Assembly (NCBI GenBank): GCA_905178155.1
Contig: CAJINV010000035.1
Span: 1,879-65,878 of the forward strand
Length of the DNA: 64,000 bases
Origin: Amoebophrya sp. A120
Lineage: Eukaryota; Protista; Dinoflagellata
Reading direction: 5' to 3'
In this document: piece by piece, positions 9,877 through 64,000 of the stretch
Position numbering within the stretch: the stretch's first letter is position 1
How the letters are laid out: each line of letters opens with the position of its first letter
Translations under genes and position numbers: made by a program
The notes under the pieces: model-generated
What the model was told of the DNA's origin: nothing
What the model saw: only the letters and a program-made list of their open reading frames with translations
Databases searched by the model: none

Positions 9877-10560
9877 TCATTGCTCTTGAGCCAAGGGGTT
9901 TTGTCGTGGTGAGGTAGAAGAGGTCCCTGACACTCCTGACGAGTAGTGGTCGCTTATTGTTGAGACAGGACGTTGCTCACCAGCCGCTGGTCCTCGCACA
10001 GCTGCTTTCGGGGGTCCTGTCGGAATTGCTGGCGTGGGAGCTGCAACAGCTGTTGCAGTGCTAGCAGAAATGAGAATGATACCCGAGGACGGTGAGGTAA
10101 CTGTTGATGTAGAAGTTACAGAAGCTGTATTCGTACTATACCTCGTCGACGCATGTATTTTCCACACCACTTCGACCAGTTCCACTCCCTTCTCTGCAGG
10201 AGCAGTTCCAGTCCAACCAGTTCGAGGAAAAAACAAGAAGAGGTTTTGACAAAAACACTACAAGACTCGTGCAATTTAATACTTCATCACATTTTGACTT
10301 GTTTGTCGACCACTACCGAATCTACGATATTATCGTCGAAGATCTCCTACTGCGATTTCAACTCCTACTCTCGAGATCGTCAAGCCGACTAGATAGAAGC
10401 AAACGAGGTGATGCTAGTACGAATAAGTAGGTCTTCTAAAGAGAGCTGCGGGGTCTGATTCTTCTGCATAGAGTTGCAAAATCTTTGGCGTCACAAACCT
10501 GCTGAGAAGAAGTATCTTTTTCGATCGGGAAATTTCATCCACCTTGTTTTGCGCGGTATT
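9877..10560 (-). pseudogene. Diverged partial duplicate of the 3' part and downstream region of the DIS3L2-like locus
   Basis: 10138-10195 encodes GVELVEVVWKIHASTRY, matching GVELVGVVWKIHASTRY at ~20931-20990. 10283-10560 aligns by eye with 19832-20170. Confidence 0.6.
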
Positions 10561-18608: not shown

Positions 18609-19814
18609 TACTGGCGCAGTTTGTAATGCTGGCGAAGAGGGCGCGACCACCCTCGCACGACCGTGCACCCTGGTCCTTTGCTACTCGGGGCGGAGTATTC
18701 TAGCTACTTCGGGGCTTGTATTGCCAGCTGCGCGCGTCACCCGCTGAAGAGGCCTTCTTCTGGAAGGTCAACAAATGCGCCACTAACTAGAGAAGTAGTC
18801 CCATCGAAATGCGCAATCTGTCATGCTGACACGTAGCAAAAGGAAAGACGGCGGTGGCGTGTTTGTGCAAAAACAAAGCGAGCCCATTCGGATTCCTTGT
18901 GTCACACGCACTGCGCATTACAAACTGACTCCGACGCAGGCAGCTTGCAAGAACGAGTCCGCCTGGACTAGTTCTCTCATACGGAAATCGCATTACAAAC
19001 AGCAACCTACTGGCGCAGTTTGTAATGCTGGCGAGGATGGCTAGGGCACGACCACCCTCGCACGACCGCGCACCCTGGTCCTTTGCTACTCGGGGCGGAG
19101 TATTCTAGCTACGTCGGGGCTTGAATTGCCAGCTGCGCGCGTCACCCCCTGAAGAAGCCTCCTTCTGGAAGGTCAACAAATGCGCCAGCAACTAGAGAAG
19201 TAGTCCCATCGAAATGCGCAATCTGTCATGCTGACACGTAGCAAAAGGAAAGAAGGCGGTGGCCTGTTTGTGCAAAAACAAAGCGAGCCCATTCGGATTC
19301 CTTCTGTCACACGCACTTCGCATTACAAACTGACTCCGACGCAGGCAGCTTGCAAGAACGAGTCCGCCTGGACTCGTTCTCTCATACGGAATCCGCATTA
19401 CAAACAGCAACCTGCTGGCGCAGTTTGTAATGCTGGCGAAGATGGCGCGACCACCCTCGCACGACCGCGCACCCTGGTCCTTTGCTCCTCGTCGCGGAAT
19501 ATTCAGCTACTTCGGGGCTTGTATGCCCAGCTTCGCGCGTCACCCGCTGAAGAGGCCCCCTTCTGGAAGGTCAACAAATGCGCCAGCAACTAGAGAAGTA
19601 GTCCCATCGAAATGCGCAACCTGTCATGCTGACACGTAGCAAAAGGAAAGAAGGCGGTGGCCTCGCTTGTGCAAAAACAAAGCGAGCCCATTCGCATTCC
19701 TTCTGTCATACGCACTGCCAATTACAAACTGACTCTTACGTCGTAGGCAGCTTGCAAGAACGAGGCCGCCTGGATTCGTTCTCTCATACGGAATCCGCAT
19801 TACAAACAGCGACC
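18609..19814. repeat. Tandem repeat, 3 copies of a ~400-bp unit
   Basis: Units start at 18609, 19008 and 19413 (t(a/g)ctggcgcagtttgtaatgctggcg); units are highly similar by eye and give near-identical short ORFs in the track. Confidence 0.95.
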
Positions 19815-20357
19815 TAATGGGCAATTTGGAACTTCACACTTTGACTCGTTTGTCGACTACCTAATAAATTAGATCGATGTCGACGAACGGCAACGGCTGA
19901 CTTCATGATATCGTCGCGCATTTTTTACTGCGATTTCATCATCTACTCCTCCAGATGTTGCGTTGAAAATCTCGAGATCTTCAAGTCGACTGGAAACAAT
20001 AAACAAAGTGATGCTTCTAGTACGAGGAGTAGGTCTAAAGCTAAACAGAGCTTGCGGTACAGATTCCAGAGCTGCGCAGAGAGGCGTTAAAGTCTTGTTT
20101 GCCACAAGCCTGTTGTTAAAGAAGAAAGTCATTTTCAATCGGGAAATGTCCGCCTTTGATGCGGTGTTTTACTTTTGGTTATTATTCTCTCTGAATAGTC
20201 ATGTAGGCACTTATCGCCAGGAAAAAAAGAAGGATCAAACTCACTCTGCTCACAGGAACACAAACAGCCGCACAATTCGTTTCTGTTGAAGTCACTTGTT
20301 TGACCTTCGACTTCAATGTGACGAGCATAAACAGATTTTTATTTGATTATTTGCTCC

Positions 20358-26980: not shown

Positions 26981-29900
26981 TCAGCAATCCACTAAGCGCA
27001 CATGCGGCCCTGGTTGCGTATCCATATTATCAAAGTGAAAAAAGCCCCCACCCCATATCGGAAACGGGAGACGCGCGAATTTGTGATGCTGTATTTGAGT
27101 ACACAAATCGACTTGTATTGCTAGGAGGCCAAGAGACGGAGCTGCGGCCTAAATTGCAGGTAATCTGTCATGCTGTTTCCCCCTTCCAGTTGCCTCTTGT
27201 CATCCTGGAGTTGCAAGGCTTTCCCACGCTAGACAGCACTACAGTCCGCATCTTTTGCCTTCTAGCATCACAAAGCTGATTTGTGACCCCAAATCTGCAT
27301 CACAGATTTCCGTTTTGATATGGGGAGGGGGCATTTTTCATTGTAATACATATCCTCTGGCATTTCAAACGGCGTTTCCAGCCCCAAGTATCCTGTGCAA
27401 AAGTATCGTGCTCGTATAAATGCATTACAAACTTCCTCAGCATGAGAAACAAAATTTGTATATGCAGATTTGCCTTGGAAACAAGATTTGTAATGCTAAA
27501 CTTGCATTGGTACGAGTGCGATACTTTTCCACAGCCTACCAATTGATACGCCCGGATCTCGCCGCTCGCAACACTAGTACTCAGCGCAAAAATGTCTGGG
27601 TCTGGAAAAATCGGAATCTGTAATGCGCGTTTTCCACTCCTGTAAAATCTGTATTGCGTGACCGACAAAAGCGCGAATTCTTTGTCATGCAAAAACGCAG
27701 TTTCTTATGCGGATTACACATGAGAAGGCGTCCGCAAAATTTGTCATGCTTGGCTGCACTCAGGAGTGTGCTCAGTCATCGCTACTGGGCATCATAGGTT
27801 TCCAGACCCAGACATATTTGCAATGCATAACTAGTCGCCGCCTGCAAAAACGCCTGCACGAAACAGTGCCACGCGAGTAGGTGGTACGAAGTTGCGAGGG
27901 TTGCCTGGGCTAAGTGGCTCGCGATGCAGGACTGCGAAGTTGTTGTCGCTGCTGCTCCTGCTGCTGCGTGGTGAGCAGCTGCTTGTCCGGCTGCGGACGC
28001 AGTCGACGCCGCGGAAGTACCACTATGCAGGACACCACCACCAGCACCAGAGCTGCAGTCAAGCCCGTGCGGAACGATGCTGCTGAGGAATCCGGCGATC
28101 CTTTGTCTTGCATGGTCGCCGCAGCAGGATGCACCGAACAGCCTGTCGCCGACGTGGAACGGTTCTAGCGTGGCGCCGGGATGTGCCCTCGTCGAGGCCA
28201 GAGGCGACTGGCCAAGAGTGAGTTTCCCGAGCGCGCCGCAAAAAAGTTCGGCTCCGATGTGAGCACAGAGCATCGCGAGATTCTCGATACCGCAGGTGCA
28301 CCAAAAACTTGTTTTCGCGGTCTCGTCCATCATCGCGTCTTGATTCTCCCGCGGTACGAGCTCGCAGGGACTGTCTTCCCCGTTGCAGCAGGTCGACGGA
28401 TCATCGGAACACCCCTATGGCGTTCTCAACTGTTACATTCTCAACTGTAATACATATATTTGTGATGCAAGACTGGCGAAAGTGAAAAGAGGAAGATTGC
28501 GCCTGTTGCATTACAAGGTTGGCGGAGATTGAGATGCTGTCTAGCCCTTCCGAAATTTGTCATGCGAAGCAGCTCGATCATCTGCCGGCTTAAGATGCTT
28601 TTGCATGACAAATACATGTAACAGATGTAACAGTTGAGAATGTAACGTTGGAGAACGCCATAACCCCTTCCGCACGTTCTTGCACGGACAGCAGAAAATT
28701 CGCAGGAACAGGCAGCCAATTGTTATCAAAAGTAAAAATGTCTGAGTCTGGAAACTTGTGATGCTGGGTGGCGTCTCATGATGAGGCTACAAATGCTGGC
28801 TCAGCATGACAAGTTTCTGAGCTCCTAGGTGTTGCCTATTCTGCATGACAAACTGCGCTTCTGCATCACAGAAAAACGGAGCTCTTGGGTAACGTGCATG
28901 ACAGATTTAAGAGTCATGCCAGACAAGCATGACAAACATGAATTCTTCCAGAGCCAGACATTTTTACAGTTGATAATTGTATCCTGACTGCAAACGCCCC
29001 CGCCACCGCATAGTCAATCTTGACTGGGATGAATTCTGCAACACAAATCCAGAAGTTTGTTTTAGATGCCACGAATGACAAGTTCGTCGCTGTAGTGTAG
29101 TAGAGCATAGCCATGTAGTTAGCAAGTGCAGCCGCATCTCAAAGCCATCAGCTTATCCTCTTTACAGGATCACAAATGCTGAAACACGACTATAGAATAT
29201 ATGCCCCTCATGAGATTGAGAATGCGCATTTTTACAAATCTTCCACCTGTAAGTTAGGTGCAAATACTTTCGAGTGGGAACATTTATATTGTTGAGGATA
29301 AATTGCTTTCACCGACACATTCCCCTTCACCGCCGCCGCCGGCACCGCCAGACACCGCAGGCACTGCGCGCTCTGTTTTGCGCAGCAATCCGACACTTTG
29401 CAGCAACAGCAGCAGCAGCAACAGAGGTTCGCAACCGTCAAGCCAACACTGGTGGTCGCCGGGTCCTTGCAACAGAACTCAGGCCAGGAACTGCCGCTGG
29501 CCCGGTCGCAGCAGGGGAATCGTTGGAGGTCCCTTTCTGTTAACGTGCCCAGCCGCTGGACGTAGCTCCGACAGGGGCGCTTCCTGTGGGTGACTTGAGC
29601 TGCTTCTCCCGCTGTGCAGCTGCAGCAGCTGTTCGTGCTGGTTGGGGACGACGGAATTCCATCAGCGGCGAGTGAAGTAGATCCTTCTGTACTACGGAGT
29701 GTCCGCATGTCGTAGCTGTCCTGCTGTTCTTGTGCCTCCACATCGCGGCCTTCCTGGTCTTCTCCGGGAAGCTGTGTTGCCAAATACATCTGCGACAGGA
29801 CGTCGCTGAGCGGGCTCCGCTGATTCGGCACGTCGAAGACGAGTACATACGCTATTTCGAGCAGCGTCGTGTCGTGCACGACAAATTCCGTGTGCAATTG

Positions 29901-32900: not shown

Positions 32901-33413
32901 TGTTGGTGGGGTGCAAGGACAGTCGGGGTTGGCGTCGGGTAGAAGGGGAGATACGCAGGGGGGTGCAAATTTGCACCGCTACCTGGCCCACCACCGGGAG
33001 GGTATGGAGTTCTCAAACGATACATTCTCAACTGTTAGATGAATTTGTCATGCAGAACTACCATCATCATTCACAAGATCAAGCTGCTGCGCATGACAAA
33101 TTTGCGAAGGGCTAAACAGCGCCTAAATCTGCGCGGGATTTGTAATGCATTTTTTGCAGTCTTCCCCCTTTTGCTTTTGCGATTCTTGCATTACAGATTC
33201 ATGTAACAGTTGAGAATGTAACTTTTGAGAACGCCATAGAGGGGGCAAAGTGCTTACATCATCCTCCTGCTGCGGTCCCAGAAAAAAACTCATCTTCGTT
33301 CCTGCCACGAGAAAATTTTCGGCTGGTGCGATTAGTTGTGCAAAAATAAGCACAACTGTTGCAGCAACAAGGAGACCATGAGCACGTGGCGGCGGTAGAA
33401 ACATCATTTTCAT
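26981..33413 (-). CDS. PARP/ADP-ribosyltransferase catalytic domain protein (~1140 aa) with signal-peptide-like N-terminus and Cys-rich C-terminus
   Basis: Spliced model gives EAYFFHGT (His 31847-31849), NILKNGL...YGDGIYLANQLHKAAQYS (~31165-31220) and LHTEFVVHDTTLLEIAYVLVF (Glu 29886-29888). Twelve elements: 33003-33238, 31908-32169, 31511-31774, 30570-30837, 30164-30372, 29989-~30147 (boundary uncertain), 28980-29300, 28724-28975, 28416-28662, 27578-27829, 27389-27538, 27028-27348. Confidence 0.8.
28723..29300. mobile_element. Compound introner: element 28724-28975 inserted one base inside the end of element 28980-29300
   Basis: Inner flanks attgt/attgt, outer flanks aattg/aattg; joint removal of 583 nt restores VKAI-GCLFLR. 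Confidence 0.8.
31511..31774. mobile_element. Introner element, family A
   Basis: About 33-nt TIR tatcaaatgtaaaaatgtctgggtctggaagaat; perfect flanks gtatg/gtatg; close copy at 48803-49079. Confidence 0.92.
31908..32169. mobile_element. Introner element, family A
   Basis: TIR and perfect flanks tccga/tccga; close copy at 52952-53216 (cagcc/cagcc). Confidence 0.9.
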
Positions 33414-35931: not shown

Positions 35932-36164
35932 GTATACTTCGTGTGTAATTATTTTTTGGCGCTTATAATTGTTATTCTCGTGCGTGTTTTGGAATCCAAC
36001 AGAAACCTAGGTAAAAGGTACTGGAGCAGTCTTCGTCCTGCACATGGATGCGCCCTAGAATGCAGAGGCGAGTAGAGCGCACTACCTCCGTGCCTGGGGT
36101 TTATCTTTTGTGCGGAAACAAAACCGAGAGTCGCGAGCTCGGCAGCAGTACCATGAAAACGATA

Positions 36165-37190
36165 GCCACTGGCTCTGCGGGAACCACCGGCCTGGCGATC
36201 ACCACTGCTCTTGCGGGAACCACTGCCCTGGCGGTAGGCGCTGCCCTTGCGGGGGCCGCTGCCTCTGCGGCAGCCCGTGCTTCTGCGGTGACCACCGCTC
36301 CGGCGGCAACCACTGCCCTTGCGACTACCGCTGCTCCCGCGCGAACCAATGGCCCTGTGGGAACCGCCGCTCCTGCGGCAGCCACTGGCCCCGCGGTAAC
36401 CACTGCCCCGACGGTAGCCACTGCCTCGGCGATGGCCACTGCCCCTGCGGTAGCCACTGCCTCGGCGGTAACCACTGCTCTGGCGGGAACCGGTGCCGTT
36501 GCGAGTACCACTGCTCCGGCGGTAGCCACTGCCTCGGCGGTAGCCACTGCCCCTGCGGTAGGCACTGCTCTGGCGGGGACCACTGCCCTTGCGACTACCA
36601 CTGCTCCGGCGGTAGCCACTGCCTCGGCGGTAGCGACTACTCTGGCGGGAACCACTGCTCTGGCGGGAACCACTGCCCTTGCGAGTGCCACTGCTCCGGC
36701 TGTAGCCACTGCCTCGGCGGTATCCACTGCCCCTACGGTAGCCACTGCCTCGGCGGTAACCACTGCTCTGGCGGAAACCACTGCCCTTGCGACTACCACT
36801 GCTCCGGCGGTAGCCACTGCCCCTGCGGTAGCCACTGCCTCGGCGATAACCACTGCTCTGGCGGGAACCACTGCCCTTGCGACTACCACTGCTCCGGCGG
36901 TAGCCACTGCCCCTGCGGTAGCCGCTGCCTCGGCGGTAACCACTGCCCTGGCGGGAACCACTGCCCTGGCGGGAACCACTGCTTTTGCGACTGCCACTGC
37001 TCCGGCGGTAGCCACTGCTCCTGCGGTAGCCACTGCCTCGGCGGTAACCACTGCCCTGGCGGGAGCCACTGCCCTTGCGACTACCACTGCTCCTGCGGTA
37101 GCCACTGCCTTGGCGCCTACCACTGCTCCGGCGGTAGCCACTGCCTCGGCGGTAACCACTGCTCCCGCACGAACCAGTGCCCTTGCGAGA
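36165..37190. repeat. 18-nt-unit minisatellite (RCCACTGCY..GCG..), open in four frames; probable low-complexity Ala/Thr/Val-rich protein
   Basis: About 55 units such as accactgctccggcggta / gccactgcctcggcggta. Track ORFs 36048-37202(+), 36110-37264(+), 36101-37279(-) and 35949-37328(-). Confidence 0.85.
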
Positions 37191-39026
37191 CCCACTTCTT
37201 GAATGTTCGCGCGCTGCGCAAGACTTGCCGTTGCGATAACCACTGCGCCAACGAAAACTACTGATCCTGCGCGAACCACTGCCGCTGCAGGGAGGCCGTG
37301 TGTCCCTGTCCACGACTAAACGCGACACATGAAGCGATCTTATTCACGTCGCAGTTAAAGAAGTTGCGTGAACAAGATCCGGAACTTCGAATTTCCAAGC
37401 ATTCTGGTCTCCTACGAGCGGCCAGCGATAGGCATGCGTCTCTGATTTGAGGTTTTGTGAATGTCGTGAAACCATTGCGTTTTGTCAGACAAAAAAGTGT
37501 ATCCGAAATGCTCATGAATGTTGTCAATGCGACCTCCGCAGTTGGTATTTTCGTTGTGGTCGTGTCCAGGCCAACGTTTTGACCTCTGCACAATAAATAG
37601 CGCTGCAACCCCTGCGTGTGGCTCGACCACAGCAGAGACAAATTGAAATCTAGAGTGTGGACCATGCTTTTCAGTGTTATGCTTTCCATCCTACACGAAA
37701 GCAAAAGCTGCTGAATCAGACAAGAATGAAGTAGGCACTGAAGAAGTACTACCAGTCGTGACGAAATACCGAGAGTGAGCACTGCAGCTCGCTCGCTATC
37801 TTGAAGAATGTCTTGAGCAAAAAATCTGTTTCAAAAAACGACGGTTGCGTTTAGGCGGACAATTACAAAAATAATGCGACATGAACTTTTTCTGCAACAC
37901 TTTTTCTTTCTATGTGTCACACCAGTATAGAGATGCTTGATGCGTGAAGTTGGGAACGCGTTTTCTTTACGTTCCTCCAGCGCTACTTCAAGAAAATCTC
38001 CTTGTTCGAGAGCCACTCAAAAAAGACAAATAAAGACGCCTCTAACTACCTCTGCTGAAAAAATAGATTTGCGGTGAACTTGCAGAAAGAAGGGAGAAAT
38101 ATTTTTAGGTAAGGCCGGAGTCTTCTACGATGCTTTGCACGTTCTATTTCATTCTGCTGTATTTCTGAGGCTTTTGTTTTTGTCTGCTTCAACGTTTTAA
38201 GTCTCAAAGCCTCTAGATGAAGTTCGAATAAATAAAAAATGTTTTCGCTGTGAAGAAAATTCGAATAAATAAAAGTGTTGTCGTGCTGCTGAATAAAAGT
38301 GGTTTTTTTGAACGTTACGTAGTATTTACACAGAGCAAAATGATGCACCGCATTCATCATTGAAGCGGAATTCATATTCAGATTGGTTTGCTATCGTCAA
38401 ATATCTCGTGATTGTATTCTGCCACTGCCTTGACCTTAGGGTGCATTAGCAAAAAGTAACTTAAAAAGTCGCGCGTTGATAAATGACCTTCGGACCGCGG
38501 GGGCGGCCGACCGAAGGATCCACACCACGGCTGGGGTATGTATTACAGCATCTTTTGGATCGTAATCAACAAAACATAAGTAGTCTTACATCTCAACACT
38601 ACGCACAGACTGAAGATATCGTGTAAAGCGCACAAAGACGACTTTGGCAGCACTTTGGCTGCGATCTTTGCATTTGCGAAAATCTAAATTCATTGCGCGC
38701 GATTTCGTTTTCCAAATACAAAACAACTTTCACAAAAAGCACATTATCGGAGAAAAAAAAACGCAGAAGTGCATCAAAATCAACCCCCGAGGCCGAACTA
38801 TGGAAGCGCCAAGCCCGAAATCGAAAAAGCTAAAAAAATTTTTAATGCACAGAAGCGACTCTCTGGGAGTGATGGCAGCAGAAGAAAGCTGCGTAGCTGT
38901 TTGGGGTTTGAGATAAAGCTTGTAAAGCAGCATGACAAAACCAGTTTTCTGTGCAAAAGCAGCAGGGTGCAAAATTGGAACTCGATGCTGCCAAAGGATG
39001 CAGCACTCTTCTGATCTGGTTCCGGC

Positions 39027-50800: not shown

Positions 50801-53800
50801 ATAGACGATGTTTACAATGCGTAGAAGCAGTTGCTTGACAGCCTTGTCCAGTTCCGGCGAAATTGGCCAGCTCGTTTCCGCATGCATCGCAAACGTGCCT
50901 GGGTCTGGAAACTGGAAACTTGTAATGCTGAGTGGCATGGTACTAGCACGAAGAGTCCACAAGTAATTATGGCCCAGCATAGCAAGTTTCTGAGCTACTT
51001 CTAAGTGTTGCCTATTCTCCTGCATGACAAGCAGCGTTTCTCCTTCTGCATCATAGAAAAATGGGGCTTGCGTGTATACGTGCATGACAGACTTGAGAGT
51101 CTTACTGGCCCCAGCATGACAAACCTCGCACTTTTCATTTTCCAAACCCAAACATATTTGCATTTGGTATATCTCTATGAACTGCAAAAGTATCGTACTA
51201 GTATAATTTGCAATACAAATTTCCTCAGCATGAGAAAAAAAATTGTCATGCGGATCTACCTTAACAATAGAATTTGTAATGCATAAATGCGATTAGTACT
51301 AGTACGATACTTTTGCACAGGATAATCTCGCCCAGCGCCAGTACCGGCCGCAGTCCCGATATTACAGTGAAAAGTGCCCCCCACCCCAAAAGTTGCAAAA
51401 GTTTGTGATGCGAGGTTTCCAAATGAAAACTTTTTGTCATGCATGAAAGGAATATGAATCTTTCTGATGCAGATTCTAGTGGTGTTTCGCATCGCTTGCA
51501 CGACAAGCATCGCTCTTGCTGGGATCTTTTGCAATACAGATTTTTGCTATTAACGATCGGAAATCTGTGATGCTGATACATGCAAGAGGGCGAATGTTTC
51601 ATTTCTTGGAAAGGGCATTTTTCATTGCAATACCCGAGGGGATCGGTTCGATAGCCGCGACGGCAGCAGCGAGTGTGGCTTCCAATCGGAAAAAAACGTT
51701 GAGGGTTTCTTGAAAACCGTCGATGTGAATAACGATCCCAGTTACTGTGGCAGCCGGGTTTGTGGTCAGTCTCTGGTCGAAGAAGTCGGTGTAGTGTTTT
51801 AAGTTGCCGCTATGAAAATGCACGACTTGATGTTCCCCCCGCCCGCATTCGCACTGGGATGAAAAGCAAATAGAATATCGTCGATAGCAGGTCAGTTCGC
51901 ATGCAGCTTTTGCATGACATCAAAAAAACGCGACCACGGAGCGGGGATCATATCATAAGGCCATACAAACAGTTACACCAGTTCCAACGTGCAAAGAGTT
52001 TGAATCAATCTGGTGCTCTTTCGCATGACAAGTGAAGGGGAAGACGCGACGTTGTGCATTGAGATACTCGGGGCAGTGCAGACACTGTGTGTCCAATTCC
52101 CAATCATGCGTCTTTACTTCGACCGGGCCCGTGGTTAAATCGCGGGAGCTGTAAAAGAACTGCCGTGCCAGCCAGGCGCGCACGGAATCAGGGACGTCCT
52201 TCTCGTGGGCCCTGACGCTGATGTGCACCTGTACAGTGCACAGTGTTTTGTCGCCTATCGTCGACTATCAAATGTAAAAATGTCTGGGTCTGGAATGTTA
52301 CCGGGTTTGTCATGCATATTTTGCACGACCCAGGATGTCTGTAATGCACAACCTAGCATGACAGATTTTCAAAGGGCTTCCTGATGCCTACTCCGCATGA
52401 CAAACGCCCTCCCCGCGCAGCACAAACTAGACTCCTCTTGCTGGTCACGCGATACAGATTTTTTTACTTTTAGAGTCCAAAGTTAGCATGACAAGTTCCA
52501 ACCTTCCAGACCCAGACATTTTTGCATTTGATATCACCTGGCTTTCGTAGCACAGCTGAAGCCCCAACTGCAAGTCGAGCACCTTCAGTGTCAACTAGGA
52601 AAGTATGTCGGGTGTTCCGGAAGAACGCATAGATTCGTCATGCTCATGCTTGGGTGACATGAGAAGAACAAGGTCTGTCATGCCTATGGCGGAGGTACAG
52701 CCACTTATGTTTGTCAATGCAAAAAAGCAATTTTCCGTCCGGTTTGCGAAATAATATGGCACGTAAGAAAAAAAAAATTAATCTTGTCACGTACTATGTG
52801 GGATAGTAGAGGTGGCTGCCTACTATACAACTCTTCATGCGCAGTCTCTGGTACAGCAATCTTTCCAGACCCAGACATCTCATACAAATGATATTCAGGC
52901 CCGTGTATCGAAAGGGGTTCAAAAAACCAGGCTTGGTGAAGACGAACAGCCTATCAACTGTAAAAGTGTCCGGGTCTGGAAGATTCTGAGACTTGTCATG
53001 CACGTGTTGCATGAGCCATGATGTCTGTGATGCATGCCCTGGCATCAAGGGCTTTCTGACGGATTCTTGATGCCTATTCCGCATGACAAATGCCCTCCCC
53101 GCGTAGCAAGAACAACTAGAATCCTTTTGCTGCTCATGCAACACAAATTTTTTAGGCATCCAAATGCAGCATAACAAGTTGCATTCTTCCAGACCCAGAC
53201 ATTTTTGCATTCGATACAGCCGTTGGCCGAAGACGTGGGAGGAAAAGTCCACCGGGACAGCGCAACGAACCTGGATGCACTCAGTGTTATCCCCAATCTC
53301 GTAAGACAGCACCTGCGGTCGCCACTCCGCTTTCGTCTCCGTGTCGAAGATGTGCAATCCCAAAACCGGGTCCGTGTGCAGCAGCAGTTCCTTCTGTGTG
53401 TAGACCCGTGGTTCCGGCAAAAACTCGTAATATCAAGTGCAAAAGTGTCTGGGTCTGGAAAAGTGGAACTTGTCATGCTAAATCTGAATCATGTAAGAAT
53501 CTGTGGTGCATGATTACCAAAAGCTATCCACAGGCATGATAGAACTCTCAGAGAACAATCTGTCATCATGCTATGTCCTACATACCAGACCTCTTGGGTC
53601 ATGGAAAACCTGTATGACAAGGCTGGCAATCTTCCAGACCCAGACATTTTTCCAGTCGATACGTAAATCTGCCGCTCGATTTCCTCCGGCACCGCGAGTA
53701 CGACGGGGTAGTAAGCCGCCCCGAACTGCCTGCGCATCTGGTTCTATGCATCGCAAATATGTAATCTGGGTCTGGAAACCTGTGATGCTGAGTTGCGGAA

Positions 53801-54064
53801 AACTTGCATTTGTAGTTACGCATGACAAGTGTTCACAGCTGCGCTCTCTGAAGCGGAGTACGCATGACAAATCGCCTTTTTGGATGACAAATGAGGCTGC
53901 CCTTTTGCTCGTCATGCAATACAGATTCTACAGCCTCATGCAAGACACGCAATACAAGTTGGACTCTTCCGGATCCACACATATTTGCATTTGATAGTTT
54001 CTGCCTTTTCTCGAAACACGCCGCCGCGGTTTTTACCAATAAGGTGTTCAACTTCTTCTTCGCG
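47864..54064 (-). CDS. One or more hypothetical genes with many introners; the most upstream exon is cut off by the large insertion at 54191
   Basis: TIR elements at 48111-48372, 48803-49079, 49188-49350, 49419-49686, 50595-50803, 50881-51169, 51176-51324, 51360-51632, 52266-52533, 52952-53216, 53431-53661 and 53745-53996. Joins in 52900-54064 verified in frame (VPEEIERQIY|EFLPEP, F-box-like pattern). Gene number not resolved. Confidence 0.5.
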
Positions 54065-54190
54065 TATGCATTGCAAAAGTTAAAGTATCGCACTCGTATA
54101 AAAAATGCATTACAAATTTTGTCAGGATGAGAAATAAAATTTGTGATGCGGATTTGCCTTAACAAAAAGATTTGTAATGCATGATTGCAA
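54065..54190. mobile_element. Left part of a family B introner, interrupted at 54191
   Basis: Matches family B (cf. 16229-16380) up to gcatgattgcaa, then the expected tacgag...gatacttttgcacaggata right end is missing. Confidence 0.8.
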
Positions 54191-55121
54191 TATCGAAGAA
54201 AAAAACACCATCACAATCACAAAACTCAAATTTTCAAAATTTTTGACCATCAAAATTAAAACTTCGCTGGACTTTCGCGGCACTCCCGAACCTGTTGTAT
54301 CTGGTTTTGAATGTTGAGTTTTGCAGCAGATGATTTATGATATTGGCTATTGGCGGTAAGCTAGCTAGTTAAGAAGAGAGATTTCTGAAGACAATCGCTC
54401 AGCTTCCAGCAGACGAACAGTGGTAGATGGGGTTGTCGCCCTCTGGCCCCACCTCGTAAGTCAAAACGTCGATTTCGGACATCCACAGCTCGAGCTCGCA
54501 AAACGTCTAAGTAGGGTATCCACTGCTCCGGCTCCGGCCCATAGATCTAGACTCTAAATCCCAAGGCCCGAGCAGCCAGATCGACAAACGATGCATGCGT
54601 TCCGGGCTCTAGGCCCCAGCGATCAGAACCAAGCTCTCACAGCCAAGCCAGCAGATGGCTTGGAGATCTAGAATATTCGCGGTCACCAAATTTGTCATGC
54701 AGATCTCAAATGCGTTCCACTTCTACCGCGTTCCACGGTTCCTCATATTTGTCATGCGCCGATTGCGTTGCGACCCAAACCAAAATGCTTCATTTCCAAA
54801 CCACCTCCAGGGCTTATCTAATTTCAGCGTTGTCGCAGACATCAGCTTTCCACTTTCGTACTTTTGCTCGGTCGTAGCATCAGTCTTCTCGATTCACCGT
54901 AATCGCTTTGAACTTCCACCTTTATCATCTCCACCGCAACGGTAACTTCGTCGGATTCCTCGACATATGCATTTGAAAATTCCAGTTTTCCCAAGTTTGT
55001 CATGCATTTTTAGCATGACAGATATTTTGCAGACGTAGATTTATGCATGACAAACTGGTTGGGAATGACTGGAGTTTTCATCTTCATAGGGCTCGACTTT
55101 CCGCTCTCGAAGACAAGCAAG

Positions 55122-57605
55122 ATGTCTGGACGCCAGGAGATCACTCTCAACGCCAAAACCACGGGGAACTACGGCCCTTTGACCGCCCCCGAGAAGAAAA
55201 AAGAGGCGGCCCGCCTGGCTGTGTGCTTGAAGATCATCTTGTCGCACTTGAAACCGGCCGACATGCTGGACTTGATCAAGCACTTGCAGGATGCCTATGA
55301 CGAGTCCCAGAAGAAGCCCGAAGAAAAGTTGGGCGGCCAGGTGTTCAGTGGAACCAATTTCAAAGGTACTACTTTGCTGTTGTATGATGCGCTTGTGCTG
55401 TTTTTGTAGGGTCGGTTTATAATTTTCTTCATTTTTTCCCGTCCGACATGAACTCATATCTTGATAAGAGACTGTCATGCGAAAATGAAACCAAAAATAT
55501 ATCTTCACAGAGGGGTGGAAGTCGATACCCATCAAATTCCTGCAAAAATGGACGGCGCTGGTTTTTGAGTGCGAGGTCCAGGACGTGCAACGCGTCCTGA
55601 AAGAGGCCGAGCAGGCGTGGGCCCTCTTTCAGACCATGGGAATTACCGACATTCACGTACTTTATCTTGTTTTTTTCAAATCTGTCATGCATATGTGTAG
55701 TTTTTTGCATCACAAATTCATCACTTGTGTTGTGCTCCAGAACTTCAGCTTTGGTGCTGATCCCGAGCCACCTCCTCATAACAAAAAACAGCCGCCGACC
55801 GGAGGCGAATCGGCCGCTACGGAGAAGTCCTGCGTGGGTGAACTGCGCTGGTGGAAGCAGAACCGCCCGAAAAAGTTCCGCAAAGCGGCCAAAGAGTTGC
55901 GCCGCTTGATGCGCGGCGACCACGAACCGTCGGAATCCGGTAGCAGCGACAGTGACCACGATTCGGCTTTCGGAGGCGAAAAAAACCGCGATGCCAGCAC
56001 CGATACCTCTGGTTCCAGTTCTTGCGGAAAAGGTCGCCGCGGTGGGAAGAAAAATGCCAAGAACAAGAAGATGAAAAAGGAGAAAGCTAAGCCGAAGGTA
56101 CTTTTGTTTGTCAGATAAGTCGGTGCAAATTTACACACAACACAAAGCTTCGCCAGCCTATTCATTCATGCGCAATACAGACATCTGAAAAGTTATATCA
56201 TGACTGACCAATCCAAAAACTAAAACAGGGCTCGATTTTGGCGCTGGCCAACAAGCCGAAGTCCATGTTGTTGAACTTCCGCGACAGCTCCAGTGCGGAT
56301 CGCAAGCGTGGCCGCTCCAAGAATGTGACCATCAAGCGCCGCCGCAAGCAGTCCTCTTCTTCCGCGCCATCCACCCCGCCCAAGCGGAAAAAGAACAAGC
56401 CCGTCCGCCAATTGACCCCGCACCCCCGTTACATCGAGCAGCGTGCGGGTCTCCCCGGGTCTTCGAAAGACATCTTCGCCCCGAACCACAACTACTCGCT
56501 GCGCGACTACCGCAAGATGCGCTCGTCGGGGAAACCGAAGTCTGGGAAACCGAGTATGCTGCTCGCGGGGAAGGAGACTTCGAAGAACAAGCGGAACGTG
56601 TTGGAAAGCGTGGACGAGGAAGAGGAAGATGCCGACTCTATCGGCGACTCTGATTCCCACGCCGAAGATTCCATGGACAACTACTTCCGCCACAACCCCA
56701 ACCTCGACAGTATGATCGATGATGGGGAACTGGATGATCAGGAGTCGAAGTCGGGACTGCCTGCTACCCCGTTGTCGCCGGATTCTTCTCATGGTGCTTC
56801 GAAAAAGCGCGGCCGTGGCAAGGGGAAGGATGATAAGAAGCCGGCTGGGAAAGGTGCTGCTACCCGCACCAAGAAAAAATCGGCCGACAAGAAGGACGAT
56901 AAGAAGGAGGCTCCGAAGCCGACGGTGAAGGTCCCGGGTACCGATGGGCGCCCGTCGCGTGGTAGCGCTTTGTCGGACAAAGCCAAATCCCTGCGTGCGA
57001 AGCGTGAAAAAGCGACGAAGAAGGCGACTGCCTCGCAGGCTTCCGGCCGTGGTACCCAGTCCTCCCAGAAGTGTATCTACTTGAAAACGGCCTCGCTGCA
57101 GCATTTGTTTCCAGGTTTCTGAACGACAAGGTTGTTCATTTTATGGAGAAGTTGATTTCTCTAAAACGAAAAACGCATGACAGGTTCAGCCTCCTGGAAA
57201 TTTCTGCAGCGGAGGCTCGTTTTCAATTGCATAAACGCCGCTCCGAAAACCCCGGAGTCGAAGGCGCGCACTCCGCGCGGCAAGACTCCTGTCGCGACTC
57301 CGGGATCCGAAAAGAAGACGAAGATGTTGCCGCCGAAGCTGCCCTCGCCGAAACAGGATAAGTCCACCCCCATGAAGACGAAGTTGGCCAGCACTCCGGG
57401 CAGCTCGGGGAAGAAAAAGAACGACGACAAGACTGCTGCGTCGCAGAAGGACCCGCCCCCGTCGGAGAAGAAAAACGACAAGCACTATTCGCCGAAGCCC
57501 AAGACGGGGCCTCCGGCTAGCAGCAGCAAATCCACGAAGGGTGAGGTCAAGGAGGAACAGAATACCTCGAAAAAGGACGAGGTGAAGAAGGACAAAACGC
57601 AGTAG
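55122..57605 (+). CDS. Lys-rich basic hypothetical protein carried by the large element
   Basis: GT-AG introns 55366-55510, 55657-55740, 56098-56228 and ~57071-57214 join track ORFs 55047-55409, 55585-56118, 56238-57122 and 57177-57605 in frame (the last junction is less certain). Confidence 0.72.
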
Positions 57606-59219
57606 GTGCTGCTGGTGCAGGCCGAATCAACATCGTCAAAACTGCGGCGTTGCAGTTTTTCACAGTTCTATTTCGTCGCGGGCCGACAAGAGCAAACCGA
57701 TTTTTCGTAGAAATAAAAGCTCATCGGAGGTGCCTACATCCTCCCATCAGCAACTACACTCGAAACCGGTGCCGATATCCGGACCAGTGCAGCGGGACAC
57801 TGATATCAAAACCTGTCTTCATACGTCACGCGGTCCTGCATGACAAACTTCAAACAACAAATGATAGAAAGGAATAAAAACAACGTCCGATTTAGCAGCA
57901 CCATCACCAGCAATAATTTCGAATATCCGGCTAAAACAACTTCGGCTGCGGCAGTAGTAGTTCCCGCATATTCATCAACTGATATCTTCACCTCCACCGC
58001 GTTCGGTCTCGGCGACACTGATCTCCCAGTCCTTATGGATTTGAAAAATTCTACCCCACTTTAGTGAAAGGCTAAAGCGCAAGATCGGAATCTGTCACGC
58101 GTGACAAGATGATATCTCGTTACGATTTCACAGCGACAGGAATTCGTCATGCATTTTGTAAAGTGTCACGCGTGTGAGGATGAGGCATCTTGCAATTGTG
58201 CCTTTCGCTAAGGTGGGGGCATCGTTTTCATTTCCATCTGCGGCCCACGGTGTCGAATCAAACGTACTTTCAGGGAAAGAACTACATTTATTTGAGTCGA
58301 TGTCATCGACGATTTCTACTCCTCGACTGAGGAGAAAGTGAACACTTTCACCGCGTATGGAGCTTGCTCCTTTTGAATACATTGCTGAGATAAAATGCGA
58401 AGCTTTTCGAGCTTCACAAAAAACTTTATTTTTTAACTGTTAAACGGACGGATGGAACCCAATAAAGCTGTGCCCTTCTCATGTTTGCCGACAGGCTACG
58501 TGCCCGCTACCGCTTCTTCTTCTTTCGTGTTCCTCAACCTCCTCCTTCCGAAATGAAAAGCTCCTTCCACCGAAGCTCTATGGTTCCGCGAAATCAAAGT
58601 AACGCGATCACCGCCCGGATCACCAATGGCTTTGCCGTCGATCAACGTTCTCGTCGCCTACAGCCACGACCGCAGCAGATCCCAAATTTCTGCTCATCGC
58701 TCGGCCCTGCGGTGCCTCGTTCTTCCACCAATGCGCTCCATCCAACAACAATTCTTTTTTCAATTTTCTCCCCGGTTCTGCTGCTTCTCAGCGAGTTCGG
58801 ACGACAAGGCTCCACGGAAATTAAAACGCAGGTCTTTCGTTCTCCACCCGATCTTGATTGCGACTGCGAAAAGTTCTTTCCGATGCATGCACTTTGAGCC
58901 ATCTTCTAACAGGGCCTTCGTTTTTGCACTTCGTGTGAAAACAGGATTGGAATTCCACTTGATTGCAAACTAGAACTTCTAGGTTTTGTAGCTTCTAAAT
59001 CTACGTAGCGACTCAGATTCAAATATAGTTTTTGTGCGGGTTTGCGCTCCGCGCTTTCTCGATAGCGACATAATTTGAAGATGGTGCAGGTGTATCCGAT
59101 GTCAAACGCCCCTCGAAAGTTGTTTGCTGTGCCATGCACAGCCTTCATTTGTCATGCACGGAGTGCATGACTGCATATCAAACGACTCTCGTGGGGCCAG
59201 TTTGCCATAGGATATACAG

Positions 59220-62200
59220 AGCAAGAAACTGTACGAGAGCGGCACGCTGATGCTGTGCCGCATGCTCAGCGACACGTGCGTTGGCAACTGGAAGCGCCAG
59301 CGTGGAGCCTTGGCTCCGAAGTGGTCCCAGTGGCGCCTGGAGCTCGAGCAGTCCGAGATGTACGGCACGGCGGAGGACCTGGACATGGAGAACGGCACCT
59401 GCAAGACCAATATGGGACTGGAGATGGTGCTTGTTTTTCTTTTCAACCTTTTCCTCTACTTTTTCGTGGGGCAAGCTGCAAGAGCTGCATCTTCAACATG
59501 GCGAAGTGCTTTCGAGGCATTTGCCCGAGGGCATTTTCGCATGACAAATTTAGAGCACGCTGCAAGACGGCGCCCCTACATGCATGACAAATTGGGTAGT
59601 TGCGGTCGAACATCATTTGCGCATCACAAACTCGAAACTGATGAGAAGAAAAACGTATTTTCGCAATACAAATTTAAATTCTTTCAGGCCTTGTTCCTGT
59701 TGTGGATGAAGGGGCGCGGGTACAGCGACCAGGTGAAGGCGTGGCTGGCCACTGTCCGCTATAAGCCGCAGGACCTCAACGACTCCGACAGGCTGCAGCT
59801 GATCGCCACAGCTTTGGAGAAGGCGCACTGCGAGTCCGAGGTGTCCGCACGCCTGCAGCTGGTAAATCGTATCCACCTTCTTTTGTCGCATTAGGTCGCG
59901 CTACTTCCGCTTTTCCAAAATAGATATGATAGCCACGCCTCGAGCTGCATGATTTCCACTTCTTTCCCGCAATACAGATTCTCCTCAAGACCCAAAAAAA
60001 TCAACACAGACCAATCTGCTGCGGGGGACGCTCGACTTGATCATCTTCATGTACAACCTGCTTGGCGTTGTCCACTTCGAGTACCCCGGCGAGTCCACCC
60101 AACTGAGTGACCAAGTGTGGCAGAAAACGATCAACATTCAGACCGATGAGAGTACAAAAGGGCAGGAGAAAAAAGCCTCCTTTGCGGTATAGAGTTTAGA
60201 TTTCTTTTGGTTGATTCTCGCATGACAAATTGCATCAGTCGTTGTTTCCTTGGATCTGTGCATTACAGAGCTTCGCCTTGTACGATTTACGCATTACAAA
60301 CTCAGGCTTACTTGAGCTTCATGATCAACCCCGTCCGGAAGTTTGTCACCTACTTCTTCCCGCTGATCTTGCAGCGCCCGAGCCAACGGCTTCCGGGAGG
60401 GAAAAACCCCGTGCACTCCGCCGCGCAGGGCAAGGCCGTCGACTTGTTCCGGCTTGTCCACTGGCTCGGGGGGCCGGCCTTGGTGCGAAAACTGGTCGGA
60501 CCGTTTTACAGTGGCTGGCGCCACTGTTTGATCATAGATAGCGATCAAGAAGAATCACAAGTACGCTCTGGACAAGGACTCGGCTACGTGATCAACTGTG
60601 TCACGCGCCTCGGCATCCATCATCGACTTTCAAATATATGCAACCGCGTGTGCCTTGCCATCGCGCGGGTCCGATTCTGTTTACGAGATTTCCTCCGCGG
60701 CCAATACGCACGCAACAGCCTCCGCGGCGCCTACGAGGCTGCGAGGCAGCGCCTGCTGCAGAAGTGCGACGAGGAGAACTTGTGCATCGTGAAGGTCGAG
60801 CGGCAGACCGGGAAGACGACGAAAAAGGCGCTACAAGAAAGTACTTCGATTTTGTTTCTCTTAACGTTCGGTAGTGCATGCAAGTGGTTTATGTTGATTT
60901 CAGGTTTTGGGCTCAATACAAGTCGGCTTTTTATTTTGAAATGGCCATCACAGCGCCCTGAAACAAGATGGCGGAAGCTCGTGGCCAGCGGCCCGGTAGC
61001 CAAACTTGCCCCAAGTCGAAAGCCGGAACCTTCGGCTTTCGATTTTTTCAAAAGTGAGCGCTTTGATTCTTGGTCGCACAGATCACAAAGAGAAAAAGTG
61101 CTCAAAAAGTGAGTTCGAAAAGGGACAAAAAGTGCAAAAAAAGCCATGGCTTTTTTTCATTTTTTTGTGGAAAATCAAATGTGATGGCGTTTTTTATCCC
61201 CACCTGTATACAAAAAAGCGAGTTGTGATGGTGTTTTTTATCCCCAGCTAAAATGGCACTTTTTGCGCTTTTTGTAAACGTGATATTTTTTGAATCCCCA
61301 CCTAAGTGCAAACGAAAGAAGCAAAAACAAAAACACCATCACAACCGGAAAAGTTCAGTTTTAGGCGCGGCCTCCGAAGTCGCTTTTTTTTCAAGTTTTT
61401 CAAAAGTGGTTACTTTGTGAAATGTGATGCTCGCCTATAGGTGGGGACTCACTCTTTTTTTGGTGCAACATCACACCAAAAATGAAAACGTTTTTTGTTT
61501 TCGGGGGGGGTCCAAAAAATATTAGAGTTAGCGAAAAAAAATGTCTATTGTGATTGACAAAACAAATAATGAAAAGACTGTTTTTCAAAATCGAAAGCTC
61601 TTGATCGTCGTCTTCAAATCCGCCCAAATCTCGCAATACAGATGCGTCGCTGACCAGTATGGTGGAAACCCGCTGGCTTGCGGAATGGGCGGTGGCACAG
61701 TGGCTGCTCAGAAACAGCGAAGTGGTGATTGCGATCTTGCGCGAGATGTTGGACTTCGAGAACGGGTTTCGGGCCAGAGTCGACGGCTCGGAGCGTGGCC
61801 AGCCCTCGGCTTTTGAGGATGGCACCGCGCTGGATTATCTCGACCTGTTTCCTGCGCCACTGGTTTTGACCGAGGAGGGCAGTGTCATGGGCCTCAGCAG
61901 TGATGTGTTCGGTGGAAGATATGCATGGCAAACAGCTAGCAATCTGACCACGTGGAAATGTGAAGAATAAAGATGTCATGCGGAAATGAACTCACAGCTG
62001 CGTTTCCTATATGCGCAGGCTGCAGCTGTTTGTCCCTTGCATAAGAATGGAGAGGATCTCGTGGCGGCTGAAGTCGATCGCAGTGACACGCTGCTGGACT
62101 ACGAAGGTAATCTTGTTGATAATCCGGATGGAGTGCAGCAGCAGCCGGTCGGCAACTTGTTGGCCCCCATGGACGTCGAGATGGAGGACGTGCAGGATGA

Positions 62201-64000
62201 TCCAGATGTTGCTCCGATTGTTCCTCCGGCCGCCAATCCGCCCGCGCAGCAGCAAAACGCTCCCGCTGGGAATTTAGGTGATCCGGATGACGACGCAGAT
62301 GATGAAGTACGAAAGTGAAAAACTCTTTGTAGAACGGGTTTGGTAGTTTGAAGCTTCTAGCTGTAGAATTTCGAACTTGTCATGCAAAATTTCCAAATTT
62401 CGTATCTACAAAGAGGCTTTCACTTTCATACACTGCTCCCGAAGGAGCTGCCGGTCGCGGAAACAACAATCGTCGCACGGACAAGCAGCGGACGCTGGAC
62501 CTTTTGAACTCCATCGAGAATTGCGACGAAGACCGAACCCGGCACTACGTCGACTCCATCAAAGTGCGCCACTCGTTTCACTCCATGCACCTTTCCGTCA
62601 CCGCCGGTGCTTTGTCGACAGATCGGGGACGAGCGGAAATCAAGGCGAAGTACACGCCGCTGTTTCCCTGGGCCAACTTCGACGGTCAATACCACGACTT
62701 TCTGATCAGCGTGGAGGAGAACATGCCGGGGTTCTTGCTTGCTGCCATGCGGCAGGCTTGCAAGAACATCCACAACCTGCAGGAAATGCACTCCGCCATG
62801 TGCATCATGATCTTCACCATGCGATTTTACTTGTGCACGTGCTTCGACCCCAATTTCGGGCTGTGGTTTTCGGTTGTGTTCCGTCCCCGCATCTCTGACG
62901 CCCACATCATGGCCAACGATATTAAGCACGACGTCCTGGACACGACGGCCGGAAATGGCGTGTTTTGCCGGAAGCTGAATGTCTTCGCCACCTACATTCA
63001 GAACCTCCTGAACACCGATGCGGAGCTTGGGGAGGAGGTTTTGAAATTGATTGTGATCAGCGGTGCAGCGGGGGACTTTGAAGGCGAGCGGCACTGGCGT
63101 TATGCCAGTGTCGCACAGAAGATTTTCCGCGCCCTCCAAGGCCGGTTCAAGTTGTCTTTCGGCCGCTTGCGCTGGGCCGAAAAGTGCACGCAACTGTACC
63201 GGAAGACTCCGTCCCTGTGGGGCTCGAGTTCCCGCCACGCCCCTGCCCCGGTTTCCCAGATCCGCCCGATTTTGGCAAACGCCGCTGATCCGCCGACCGC
63301 TGCGTCTTTCCGTGAAGAAGTTTTGCAGGAGTCTAAGGACGCTCCGACCCTGCAGCAGCAGTTCAAAGTCCTGGAGGACCTGCGGATGTCCCATCCGCTT
63401 CCGGAGCCGATGGCGGAGATCGCGAATCGAATCAAGCTGGAGACTATCCTCTGAAAAAAACTAAAATGAATGCTGCTCTCATGCATGACAAACACATAAT
63501 GTGGCACTGGAAAAGAACTCGCATCATGGAAAGCATTCACTTTAGACATTTCTCTTTGGGATAAATTCTCTGAGTGACGACATCGCCGCCAGCGCCATCA
63601 ACTACGTGAAGCCGGGTTTGGAGACCGCGGTGCGCCTCCAGGCCAGTCGCGTCGAACAGACGGCCGACATCCCGATCTTGGAAGAGGTGGGCAAGCGTTT
63701 ATCCAGATGAGCCTCCTGCTCGCCATCACAGATTTTGTAATGCGCGAGGAGCAGACGCGGCATCTTGCATCACATTTTGCGCATGACAGATGGTAGTGAT
63801 TTCAGGGAGCAGGAGGCTCATCTGCATAATCTGTTGACAATGCTCTGCGCTTGCGGCACCGCGCTGCCGACCACCGCCCGGTCTGTGCTATCGACGAGGA
63901 GGGCGGGACTTTGGGAATGATCATGTGGTTGGTCTTGCAGATTATCGACGGGAAGTGGTTCGGAGTGTCGATGACCAGAGTTCCGGGAGACGTGCTGATG
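59220..64000 (+). CDS. hAT-like DDE transposase (5' start unresolved, 3' end beyond window)
   Basis: Exons joined by GT-AG introns 59427-59687, 59862-60009, 60187-60305 and probably 60841-61641. Motifs TINIQTDEST (60136-60156), LIIDSD (~60528-60545), GIHHRLSNIC (~60612-60641) and SMVETRWLAEWAVAQWLL (61656-61709) occur in hAT order. Three introners (62308-62430, 63445-63563, 63700-63828), in frame with element+5. Confidence 0.65.
63700..63828. mobile_element. Introner element inside the transposase gene
   Basis: TIR tatccagatgagcctcctgctc / gagcaggaggctcatctgcata; element+5 removal keeps the frame open to the window end. Confidence 0.8.

Follow-up and report, generated by a model that had tools for sequence, protein, structure and literature searches.

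Which enzyme moves the introners, the short intron-forming elements of the dinoflagellate Amoebophrya sp. A120? It was reported that the A120 genome contains about 29,850 introners in 1,954 families, which make up 17% of the assembly, and that their ends consist of TAT, seven variable nucleotides and at least three A, with short direct repeats (PMC7789003); direct repeats of 5 bp in Amoebophrya introners are named in the legend of Fig. S19 of that paper. Two putative transposases are given there for A25 and none for A120, and general transposase-mediated mobilization was concluded to be ruled out; for A25 introners, the consensus is TTA followed by two purines (PMC7789003). Here, a stretch of 64,000 nucleotides of A120 DNA (the window; assembly GCA_905178155.1, contig CAJINV010000035.1, positions 1,879 to 65,878 of the forward strand) was analyzed, in which a large element starts at window position 54191 inside a broken introner and continues to the window edge. 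We regard it as genuine and present in few copies; it carries two genes, the open reading frames ORF1 and ORF2, and is more than 9.8 kb long. Our reading, to which we assign a probability of roughly 0.55, is that a DDE transposase encoded by ORF2 moves both the element itself and the short TA-ended introners.

The start of the element is defined by several comparisons. The family-B introner that starts at 54065 can be aligned with each of the eight other family-B copies of the window as far as about 54190-54192, where the similarity ends; by this alignment, 54065..54190 (plus strand) is the left part of an introner broken by an insertion. TCGCG at 54060-54064 belongs to the introner's own duplication. 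The TA at 54191-54192 is compatible with both family B and the element, and foreign flanks differ up to 54190; therefore the element start was placed at 54191. The DNA runs X1, X2, X3 and X4 were compared with 54171-55370, and all depths given here are summed contig depths and not copy numbers. Foreign flanks of 153 to 255 or more letters, ending at 54187-54191, were present in at least five contigs of X1 and at least six of X2; allowing for overlap between these two runs, the left end joins at least seven different other flanks. The depth in X1 and X2 falls from 2873 and 4947 at 54199 to 1481 and 2886 at 54221, to 67 and 172 at 54251-54330, and to 25-33 and 69-76 in the body, and loose contig ends lie behind 54221 and 54242-54243. 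This gradient and the loose ends indicate many short elements elsewhere in the genome that have only the first 31-53 bp in common with the left end of the large element (54191..54243, plus strand). Position 54191 is the end of a repeated mobile element that occurs with many flanks.

The end at 54191-54205 is of the introner type and fits the A120-type consensus of TAT, 7 nt and AAA. With a matrix derived from 24 introners (48 ends), the score is 11.2 bits at position 54191 and below -8 at all 19 other positions in 54180-54199. A score of at least 11.2 bits was reached at 117 of 127,968 positions, 58 of them catalogued ends and most others at repeat ends; in base-shuffled DNA, about two such positions are expected per 64-kb strand. 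An earlier reading made from the letters of this stretch (the sequence-only reading) had placed the start of the element at the family-B break with an introner-type end, and the alignment, the flanks and the matrix bear this out. The predicted 5-bp target site is TGCAA (54186..54190, plus strand), as deduced from the boundary and from the 5-bp duplications of the introners, and one copy of it lies within the window; downstream of 54191 in the window, neither the right arm of family B nor an inverted copy of the new end was found. The subterminal region that follows (54244..54450, plus strand) has about twice the body depth (67 and 172), is shared with a diverged relative and has a joint of 54243 to 54374. 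A pattern scan for the left end elsewhere gave four loci, all four being chance matches that diverge directly after the pattern. As a separate observation, a loose end before 54201 in one error-prone contig of X4 is apparently a further copy of the left end that has entered an arm of another family-B introner; this hints that certain targets are preferred.

ORF2 (59081..64000, plus strand) is the candidate transposase gene. Its spliced model has 995 codons with no stop and runs off the window edge; the predicted exons are 59081-59089, 59220-59426, 59688-59868, 59978-60186, 60306-60840, 61642-61919, 62049-62307, 62436-63444, 63569-63699 and 63834-64000. The model is collinear with unnamed Amoebophrya proteins; in BLASTP, it matched P0001 with an E value of 4e-98 and 29.7% identity over residues 18-895 of 1154, and P0005 with an E value of 1e-36; since the alignment stops at residue 895 of P0001, about 260 residues are missing beyond the window. 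One ORF2 exon gave 10 matches among 1.84 billion representatives, and nine were true homologs: the A25 protein CAD7952400.1 (P0001, 1154 aa), g6126 and g5367 of AT5.2, and six unnamed fragments. P0010 was discarded as an ankyrin chance match. An alignment-scored search of 7993 candidates found P0001 and P0004 as sole relatives, and a word-based search for relatives of the D2 exon found none among 2629 candidates. Scans for the locus gave 0 of 40 for metagenomes, 0 of 21 and 0 of 46 for viral sequences and 0 of 49 for prokaryote genomes, and plasmids gave no match.

The homologs allow the catalytic residues of ORF2 to be proposed, all on the plus strand. The candidate first catalytic Asp is D189 (60145..60147) in a QxDxSxKG block, invariant in the three long sequences. 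The second would be D280 or D282 in a DxD motif (60537..60545), both invariant in all ten aligned sequences. At the place of the hAT CxxH motif lies GxHHR (60612..60635; HH at 60618-60623), in which G, the second H, R and N are invariant in ten of ten and the first H in nine of ten. It is followed by an RW motif with W392 (61671..61676) and by the candidate catalytic Glu, E777 (63086..63088), in an SGxxxDxxGExxW block, both invariant in the three long sequences. The sequence-only reading had seen four motifs in the order D, D, HH and RW in one spliced frame, and they are so ordered, starting at 60145, at 60537 and 60543, at 60618 and at 61671; an ETRW at about 60958 sits in an intron and was ruled out as the homologous RW motif. 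Two of its points need correction: the catalytic Glu was not seen by it in the window, where a conserved candidate Glu is present, and instead of one ORF there are two genes separated by a non-coding spacer. The proposed enzyme would probably be an RNase H-type transposase with the triad D189, D280 or D282, and E777 and a long insertion before the Glu, in which HH and RW would take the roles of the hAT CxxH and Trp.

The hAT superfamily offers the closest comparison. The CxxH motif was defined in hAT transposases and is needed for hairpin formation in Kat1, whose D-D-H-W-E spacing is 67/28/171/319, with the second Asp given as D377 and elsewhere as D328 (PMC4763223). In Muta1, a Mutator-type (MULE) transposase, the spacing is 69/24/94/18 (PMC5225508). 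The corresponding values are 100/26/83/307 in P0001 and 94/26/86/315 in P0005; RW lies 83-86 residues after the His in the homologs, and the distance from Trp to Glu is 307-385 across ORF2 and its homologs. MULE proteins share the D, D, H and W motifs, and differ in that the Trp of Muta1 stands only 18 residues before the Glu. Some MULEs have a second gene, and MULE duplications are 8-9 bp. By comparison of these spacings with Kat1 and Muta1, the predicted layout of ORF2 is hAT-like and not MULE-like. As in Hermes and Kat1, the order is D, D, H, W and then about 300 residues to E, and the sequence comparison puts a conserved Trp, the counterpart of Hermes W319, after the His and finds D, D and E conserved in this sequence, the E being preceded by a long insertion. 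The element also starts with TA, as hAT elements do. Terminal inverted repeats of hAT elements are 5-27 bp long, their termini follow (T/C)A(A/G)NG, and hAT elements have a single transposase gene. The end TATCG agrees with this consensus at four of five positions and differs at the third.

Further features separate ORF2 from hAT. GxHH stands in place of CxxH, a second gene is present, the element exceeds 9.8 kb, and two full-length homologs have about 460-560 residues after the Glu and a C-terminal CxxC, which is the sole CxxC of the homologs and sits near the C-terminus. The C-terminal dimerization domain PF05699 is a hAT feature (PMC4316626); it was not found at E 1 in P0001 and P0005 nor at E 5 in the long ORF2 exon, in searches whose HMMER filters drop weak matches. 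The BED finger PF02892, common and not universal in hAT, was likewise not found in the long exon, P0001 or P0005. It was reported that hAT5, placed with Blackjack-type hAT, makes 5-bp duplications, as the sequence-only reading had said (PMC12730594); here, this likeness is seen for the window introners only. ORF2 should therefore not be filed as hAT or hAT5: neither CxxH nor PF05699 nor a BED finger was found, and the element has two genes in place of one. Of the sequence-only interpretation, the mobile boundary at 54191 and an intact gene with D-D-H-W-E stand, together with its remark that the Cys of CxxH is absent, which holds in all ten aligned sequences; membership in hAT or hAT5 is not supported in the form proposed. 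It is likely instead that ORF2 encodes a hAT-like transposase of an unnamed lineage, with a hAT-like mode of action suggested by its motifs.

IS3EU elements have TAY...RTA ends and 6-bp duplications (PMC12730594). One introner family of the window that starts with TATGG (16427-16666, 28416-28662 and about 33003-33238) has IS3EU-like ends, yet the duplications are of 5 bp in both scored copies. The IS3EU enzyme is integrase-type with a short distance from D to E, and ORF2 has no such short distance. Among the introners described from Amoebophrya, the likeness to the element lies in the end of TAT, 7 nt and AAA, and the difference is that here a coding element has this end type (PMC7789003). Long introner-related elements with inverted ends are also known from A120: family 38 combines inverted ends with open frames that have Copia/Gypsy homology, several others looking similar, and fam135, with four members and a model some 18.8 kb long, was automatically flagged for hAT5/hAT6-like termini (PMC12130899). 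Both resemble the large element as long elements of this kind and differ from it, family 38 in its Copia/Gypsy homology and fam135 in its final class of non-LTR/Unknown. In the supplement of that paper, where 60 of 85 matches to 'hAT' were covered with the Amoebophrya rows included, the term stands in no Amoebophrya row except fam135 (PMC12130899). The description of fam135 comes with no sequences; it is possibly, though not necessarily, the present element. Likewise, one of the two A25 transposases of PMC7789003 may be P0001; neither 'transposase' nor the A25 locus tag was found in the supplement text covered. No such element was named in the literature searched on Amoebophrya introners and transposases and on an autonomous introner transposase of dinoflagellates; Roy et al. 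(2023, Curr Biol) and Repbase may bear on its novelty.

The link between the element and the introners rests on the ends and duplications of the latter. Small repeated elements crowd the whole 64-kb window, and the depth of introner families in the public run X1 is 16,000-160,000 versus about 30 for unique DNA. A scan of the window for TA-ended inverted repeats gave 48 candidates; a perfect target duplication of 5 bp was present in 17 of them, one of 4 bp in a single candidate and none of 3 or 6-9 bp. Flank identity averages 0.65 for a length of 5 bp versus 0.20-0.30 for the other lengths from 2 to 9. The claim of TA ends and 5-bp flanks is thus confirmed, and the ends fit the published A120 consensus of TAT, 7 nt and at least three A (PMC7789003). 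When the 24 introners with at least four of five duplication matches were excised together with 5 or 8 bases, a coding-like open frame resulted in 13 and 14 of them, versus 6 of 24 with 3, 4, 6 or 7 bases. Introner-type introns with inverted ends lie in ORF2 itself (61920-62043, 62308-62430, 63445-63563 and 63700-63828, and a fifth at 59093-59214); excision of the first four with 5 (or 8) nt leaves no stops, versus 10-19 stops with 3, 4, 6 or 7 nt.

The following mechanism is proposed. The ORF2 enzyme or close paralogs would recognize the loose end of TAT, 7 nt and AAA, excise introners and insert them by a 5-bp staggered cut, a step that we hold to be slightly better than even. An introner would then be spliced out with one 5-bp copy, which restores the frame, so that insertions would be retained as introns, even within the transposase gene; the restored frame was computed from the letters and the splicing is predicted. 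For the link speak the fit of the element end to the consensus of most introner families and the many short partners that have its end. For the enzyme responsible for TA-ended introners with 5-bp duplications, the element would be the strongest candidate at present, and the first concrete one.

A motif of the type TGT(C/G/A)ATGC was observed 30-59 nt inside 31 of the 48 ends of unrelated introner families (e.g., 31511, 48803 and 52952). It often recurs about 31 nt further in and is present also in GT-AG introns, and on the transcript it lies 30-59 nt upstream of the 3' end, whichever the orientation of the introner. It may serve splicing, as a branch-point-like signal, or may be a transposase site. 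The shared motif GCAT(G/C/T)ACA was dropped as proof of a link between the element and introners, being found throughout non-coding DNA, GT-AG introns included.

Several observations weigh against the element as the driver of the introners, and each is given here with the alternative on which it bears. An unlikely though serious alternative is that this autonomous transposon mobilizes only its own short relatives, those with the first 31-53 bp, and that the abundant introners use other enzymes, e.g., of the integrase type. Integrase-type enzymes also make duplications of 4-6 bp, which counts in its favor. At best, 15 of 20 letters of the element end agree with the abundant families, a loose consensus only, and the subterminal layout differs, with no TGT(C/G/A)ATGC-type motif 30-59 nt inside the element end and a related motif at +18 in the opposite orientation. 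AT5 has two ORF2 homologs, yet its introns were predicted to be 99.98% canonical (PMC7789003), and an integrase-like candidate has already been described in A120, where an introner family has Copia/Gypsy-homologous frames (PMC12130899). Conversely, the AT5 figure is a prediction and may miss non-canonical introns, and the element end agrees with the published consensus that covers most A120 introners (PMC7789003). A single end type and a single duplication length across unrelated families point to one enzyme family.

It is improbable that ORF2 descends from a transposase and is now domesticated and fixed in the host, next to a short non-autonomous element at 54191, with the variant body explained by a segmental duplication or a mixed sample. 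The body variants bear on this directly: between 54831 and 64000, 47 of 8912 letters in X1 contigs (about 0.5%) deviate from the window, and 0 of 1845 in three upstream pieces; the variant alleles begin just inside the boundary and are absent from these upstream pieces, and X1 and X2, which come from one sample, have opposite alleles at seven sites. A second, nearly identical copy of the element is the simplest reading and a mixed sample the alternative. A 2111-letter X1 contig that matches 54357-54470 at about 75-80% and continues into ORF1 exon 1 points to a diverged family member, apparently containing the subterminal region and ORF1 exon 1, which links subterminal DNA to ORF1, and one X1 contig extends 4220 letters beyond 64000. 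Within the 9.8 kb to the window edge, the right end of the element was not seen, and this tells against our reading, yet the same stretch contains neither the right end of a short element nor a resumed family-B arm. Domestication would agree with the intact homologs in A25 and AT5.2 (P0001 having one cluster member), with the body depth near single-copy and with the age of the introners inside the gene. In coding DNA, the differences between the variants (40 of 149 rows) comprise 7 synonymous and 8 replacement changes, where the neutral synonymous share would be 0.22-0.34, and they are too few to show selection. The whole stretch from 54191 to beyond 64000 would, very probably, be one element with a second near-identical copy.

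The age of the introners in the body can be judged from their duplications. Besides the five in ORF2, introner-type elements lie upstream of ORF1 (54966..55088, inverted ends 18/24), in ORF1 as its intron 4 (57074..57233, inverted repeat I23, whose excision with 5 nt counted from 57073 keeps the frame) and in the spacer between the genes (58034..58238, inverted repeat I1). The duplications of these eight (54966-63828) have decayed and none is perfect, whereas 17 of 43 candidates before 54000 have a perfect one, and the introners inside the large element are likely older than those before 54000. Old introners inside the genes of the element imply a long coexistence of the two, which counts in favor of the link.

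No better supported is the view that the element is mobile non-autonomous cargo and that ORF2 is not a DDE enzyme, its motif order being a coincidence. It draws on the failure of Pfam, NCBIfam and PDB sequence searches to match any transposase, and on the Gly at the Cys place of CxxH in all ten aligned sequences, in which the His is invariant. D189 and E777 rest on three sequences, in which 129 positions are invariant and as many as 21 of these are acidic. Recognition by the ESM Atlas features was low: DDE_5 clusters stand at ranks 2, 3 and 24 with scores of 0.83-0.84, below the 0.9 mark, which is a lead only, and the long ORF2 exon gave no usable match. Single-sequence AlphaFold models had predicted local distance difference test values of 36 and 35, leaving fold searches uninformative. 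Against coincidence, it is the best conserved blocks of proteins with 25-30% identity that contain the five candidate residues, in the right order and with hAT-like spacing. A false join of the window across the repeated end, which would unite a short element in an introner with a long body from elsewhere, is very hard to credit: among the contigs listed, none bridges the junction 54190/54191 or joins 54190 to the unique body, but the repeated part spans only about 50-260 bp, a length that paired or long reads should cross.

The first gene, ORF1 (55122..57605, plus strand), encodes about 660 aa in five predicted exons with no internal stop and a G+C content at third codon positions of 0.64-0.80. 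The protein is basic and of low complexity beyond its first 130 or so residues. A Pfam search gave nothing below E 0.1, a word-based protein search with exon 1 found no homolog among 84 candidates, and ORF1 is a candidate accessory DNA-binding protein. The spacer between ORF1 and ORF2 has a codon score of at most 0.08 versus 0.20-0.41 in control exons and is non-coding, which rules out a third gene in 57606-59080. In ORF2, an 801-bp GT-AG intron (60841..61641, plus strand, in-frame splice) contains positions 10-26 of the left end twice, as perfect copies of 16-17 bp, one inverted at 61223-61239 and one direct at 61329-61344 (pairwise BLASTN E values of 2e-5 and 6e-5), and one near copy besides; they are candidates for a nested relative or for internal binding sites. 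The RNA runs X5 and X6 gave only 7 and 4 partial reads, none on the element, and the neighboring exons were uncovered too.

Upstream of the element, the host gene lies on the minus strand (segments in 52805..54064), with its frame open up to the family-B introner and its 5' part predicted beyond the large element. Its segments have a minus-strand codon score of 0.20-0.34 and, for all three, no Pfam match. Once three introners are excised with 5 nt each, the segments form a single open frame of 167 codons; this is weak alone, as other offsets are also open. Elsewhere in the window, a tandem array (18609-19831) has three units of about 400 bp that carry the same GCATTACAA and TGTCATGC motifs, and a GC-rich tandem repeat of short units (36160-37296) likely codes for a low-complexity repeat protein. 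The ends of a repeated pair (10369-10536 and 19970-20150; start TCTCGAGATC) differ from those of TA-ended introners, so that the pair possibly represents another element class.

The spread of introners by a transposase had been argued against since none was found in A120 (PMC7789003), and a coding element with the same end type reopens the question. A wider picture can be drawn only tentatively, and we regard it with more doubt than confidence: a two-gene DDE transposon lineage, so far confined to Amoebophrya-type parasites, would accept a loose TA-type end and so drive unrelated introner families by the hundred, with non-canonical introns in the tens of thousands; the transposase gene would itself depend on the splicing of introners made by its enzyme, and the whole element may leave as part of a giant intron. 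The element would also add a transposase lineage undetected by Pfam, and the non-canonical introns that cut its gene would explain why it was missed. With the intact A25 homolog CAD7952400.1 and the residues named here, the question of introner mobilization becomes testable at the bench.

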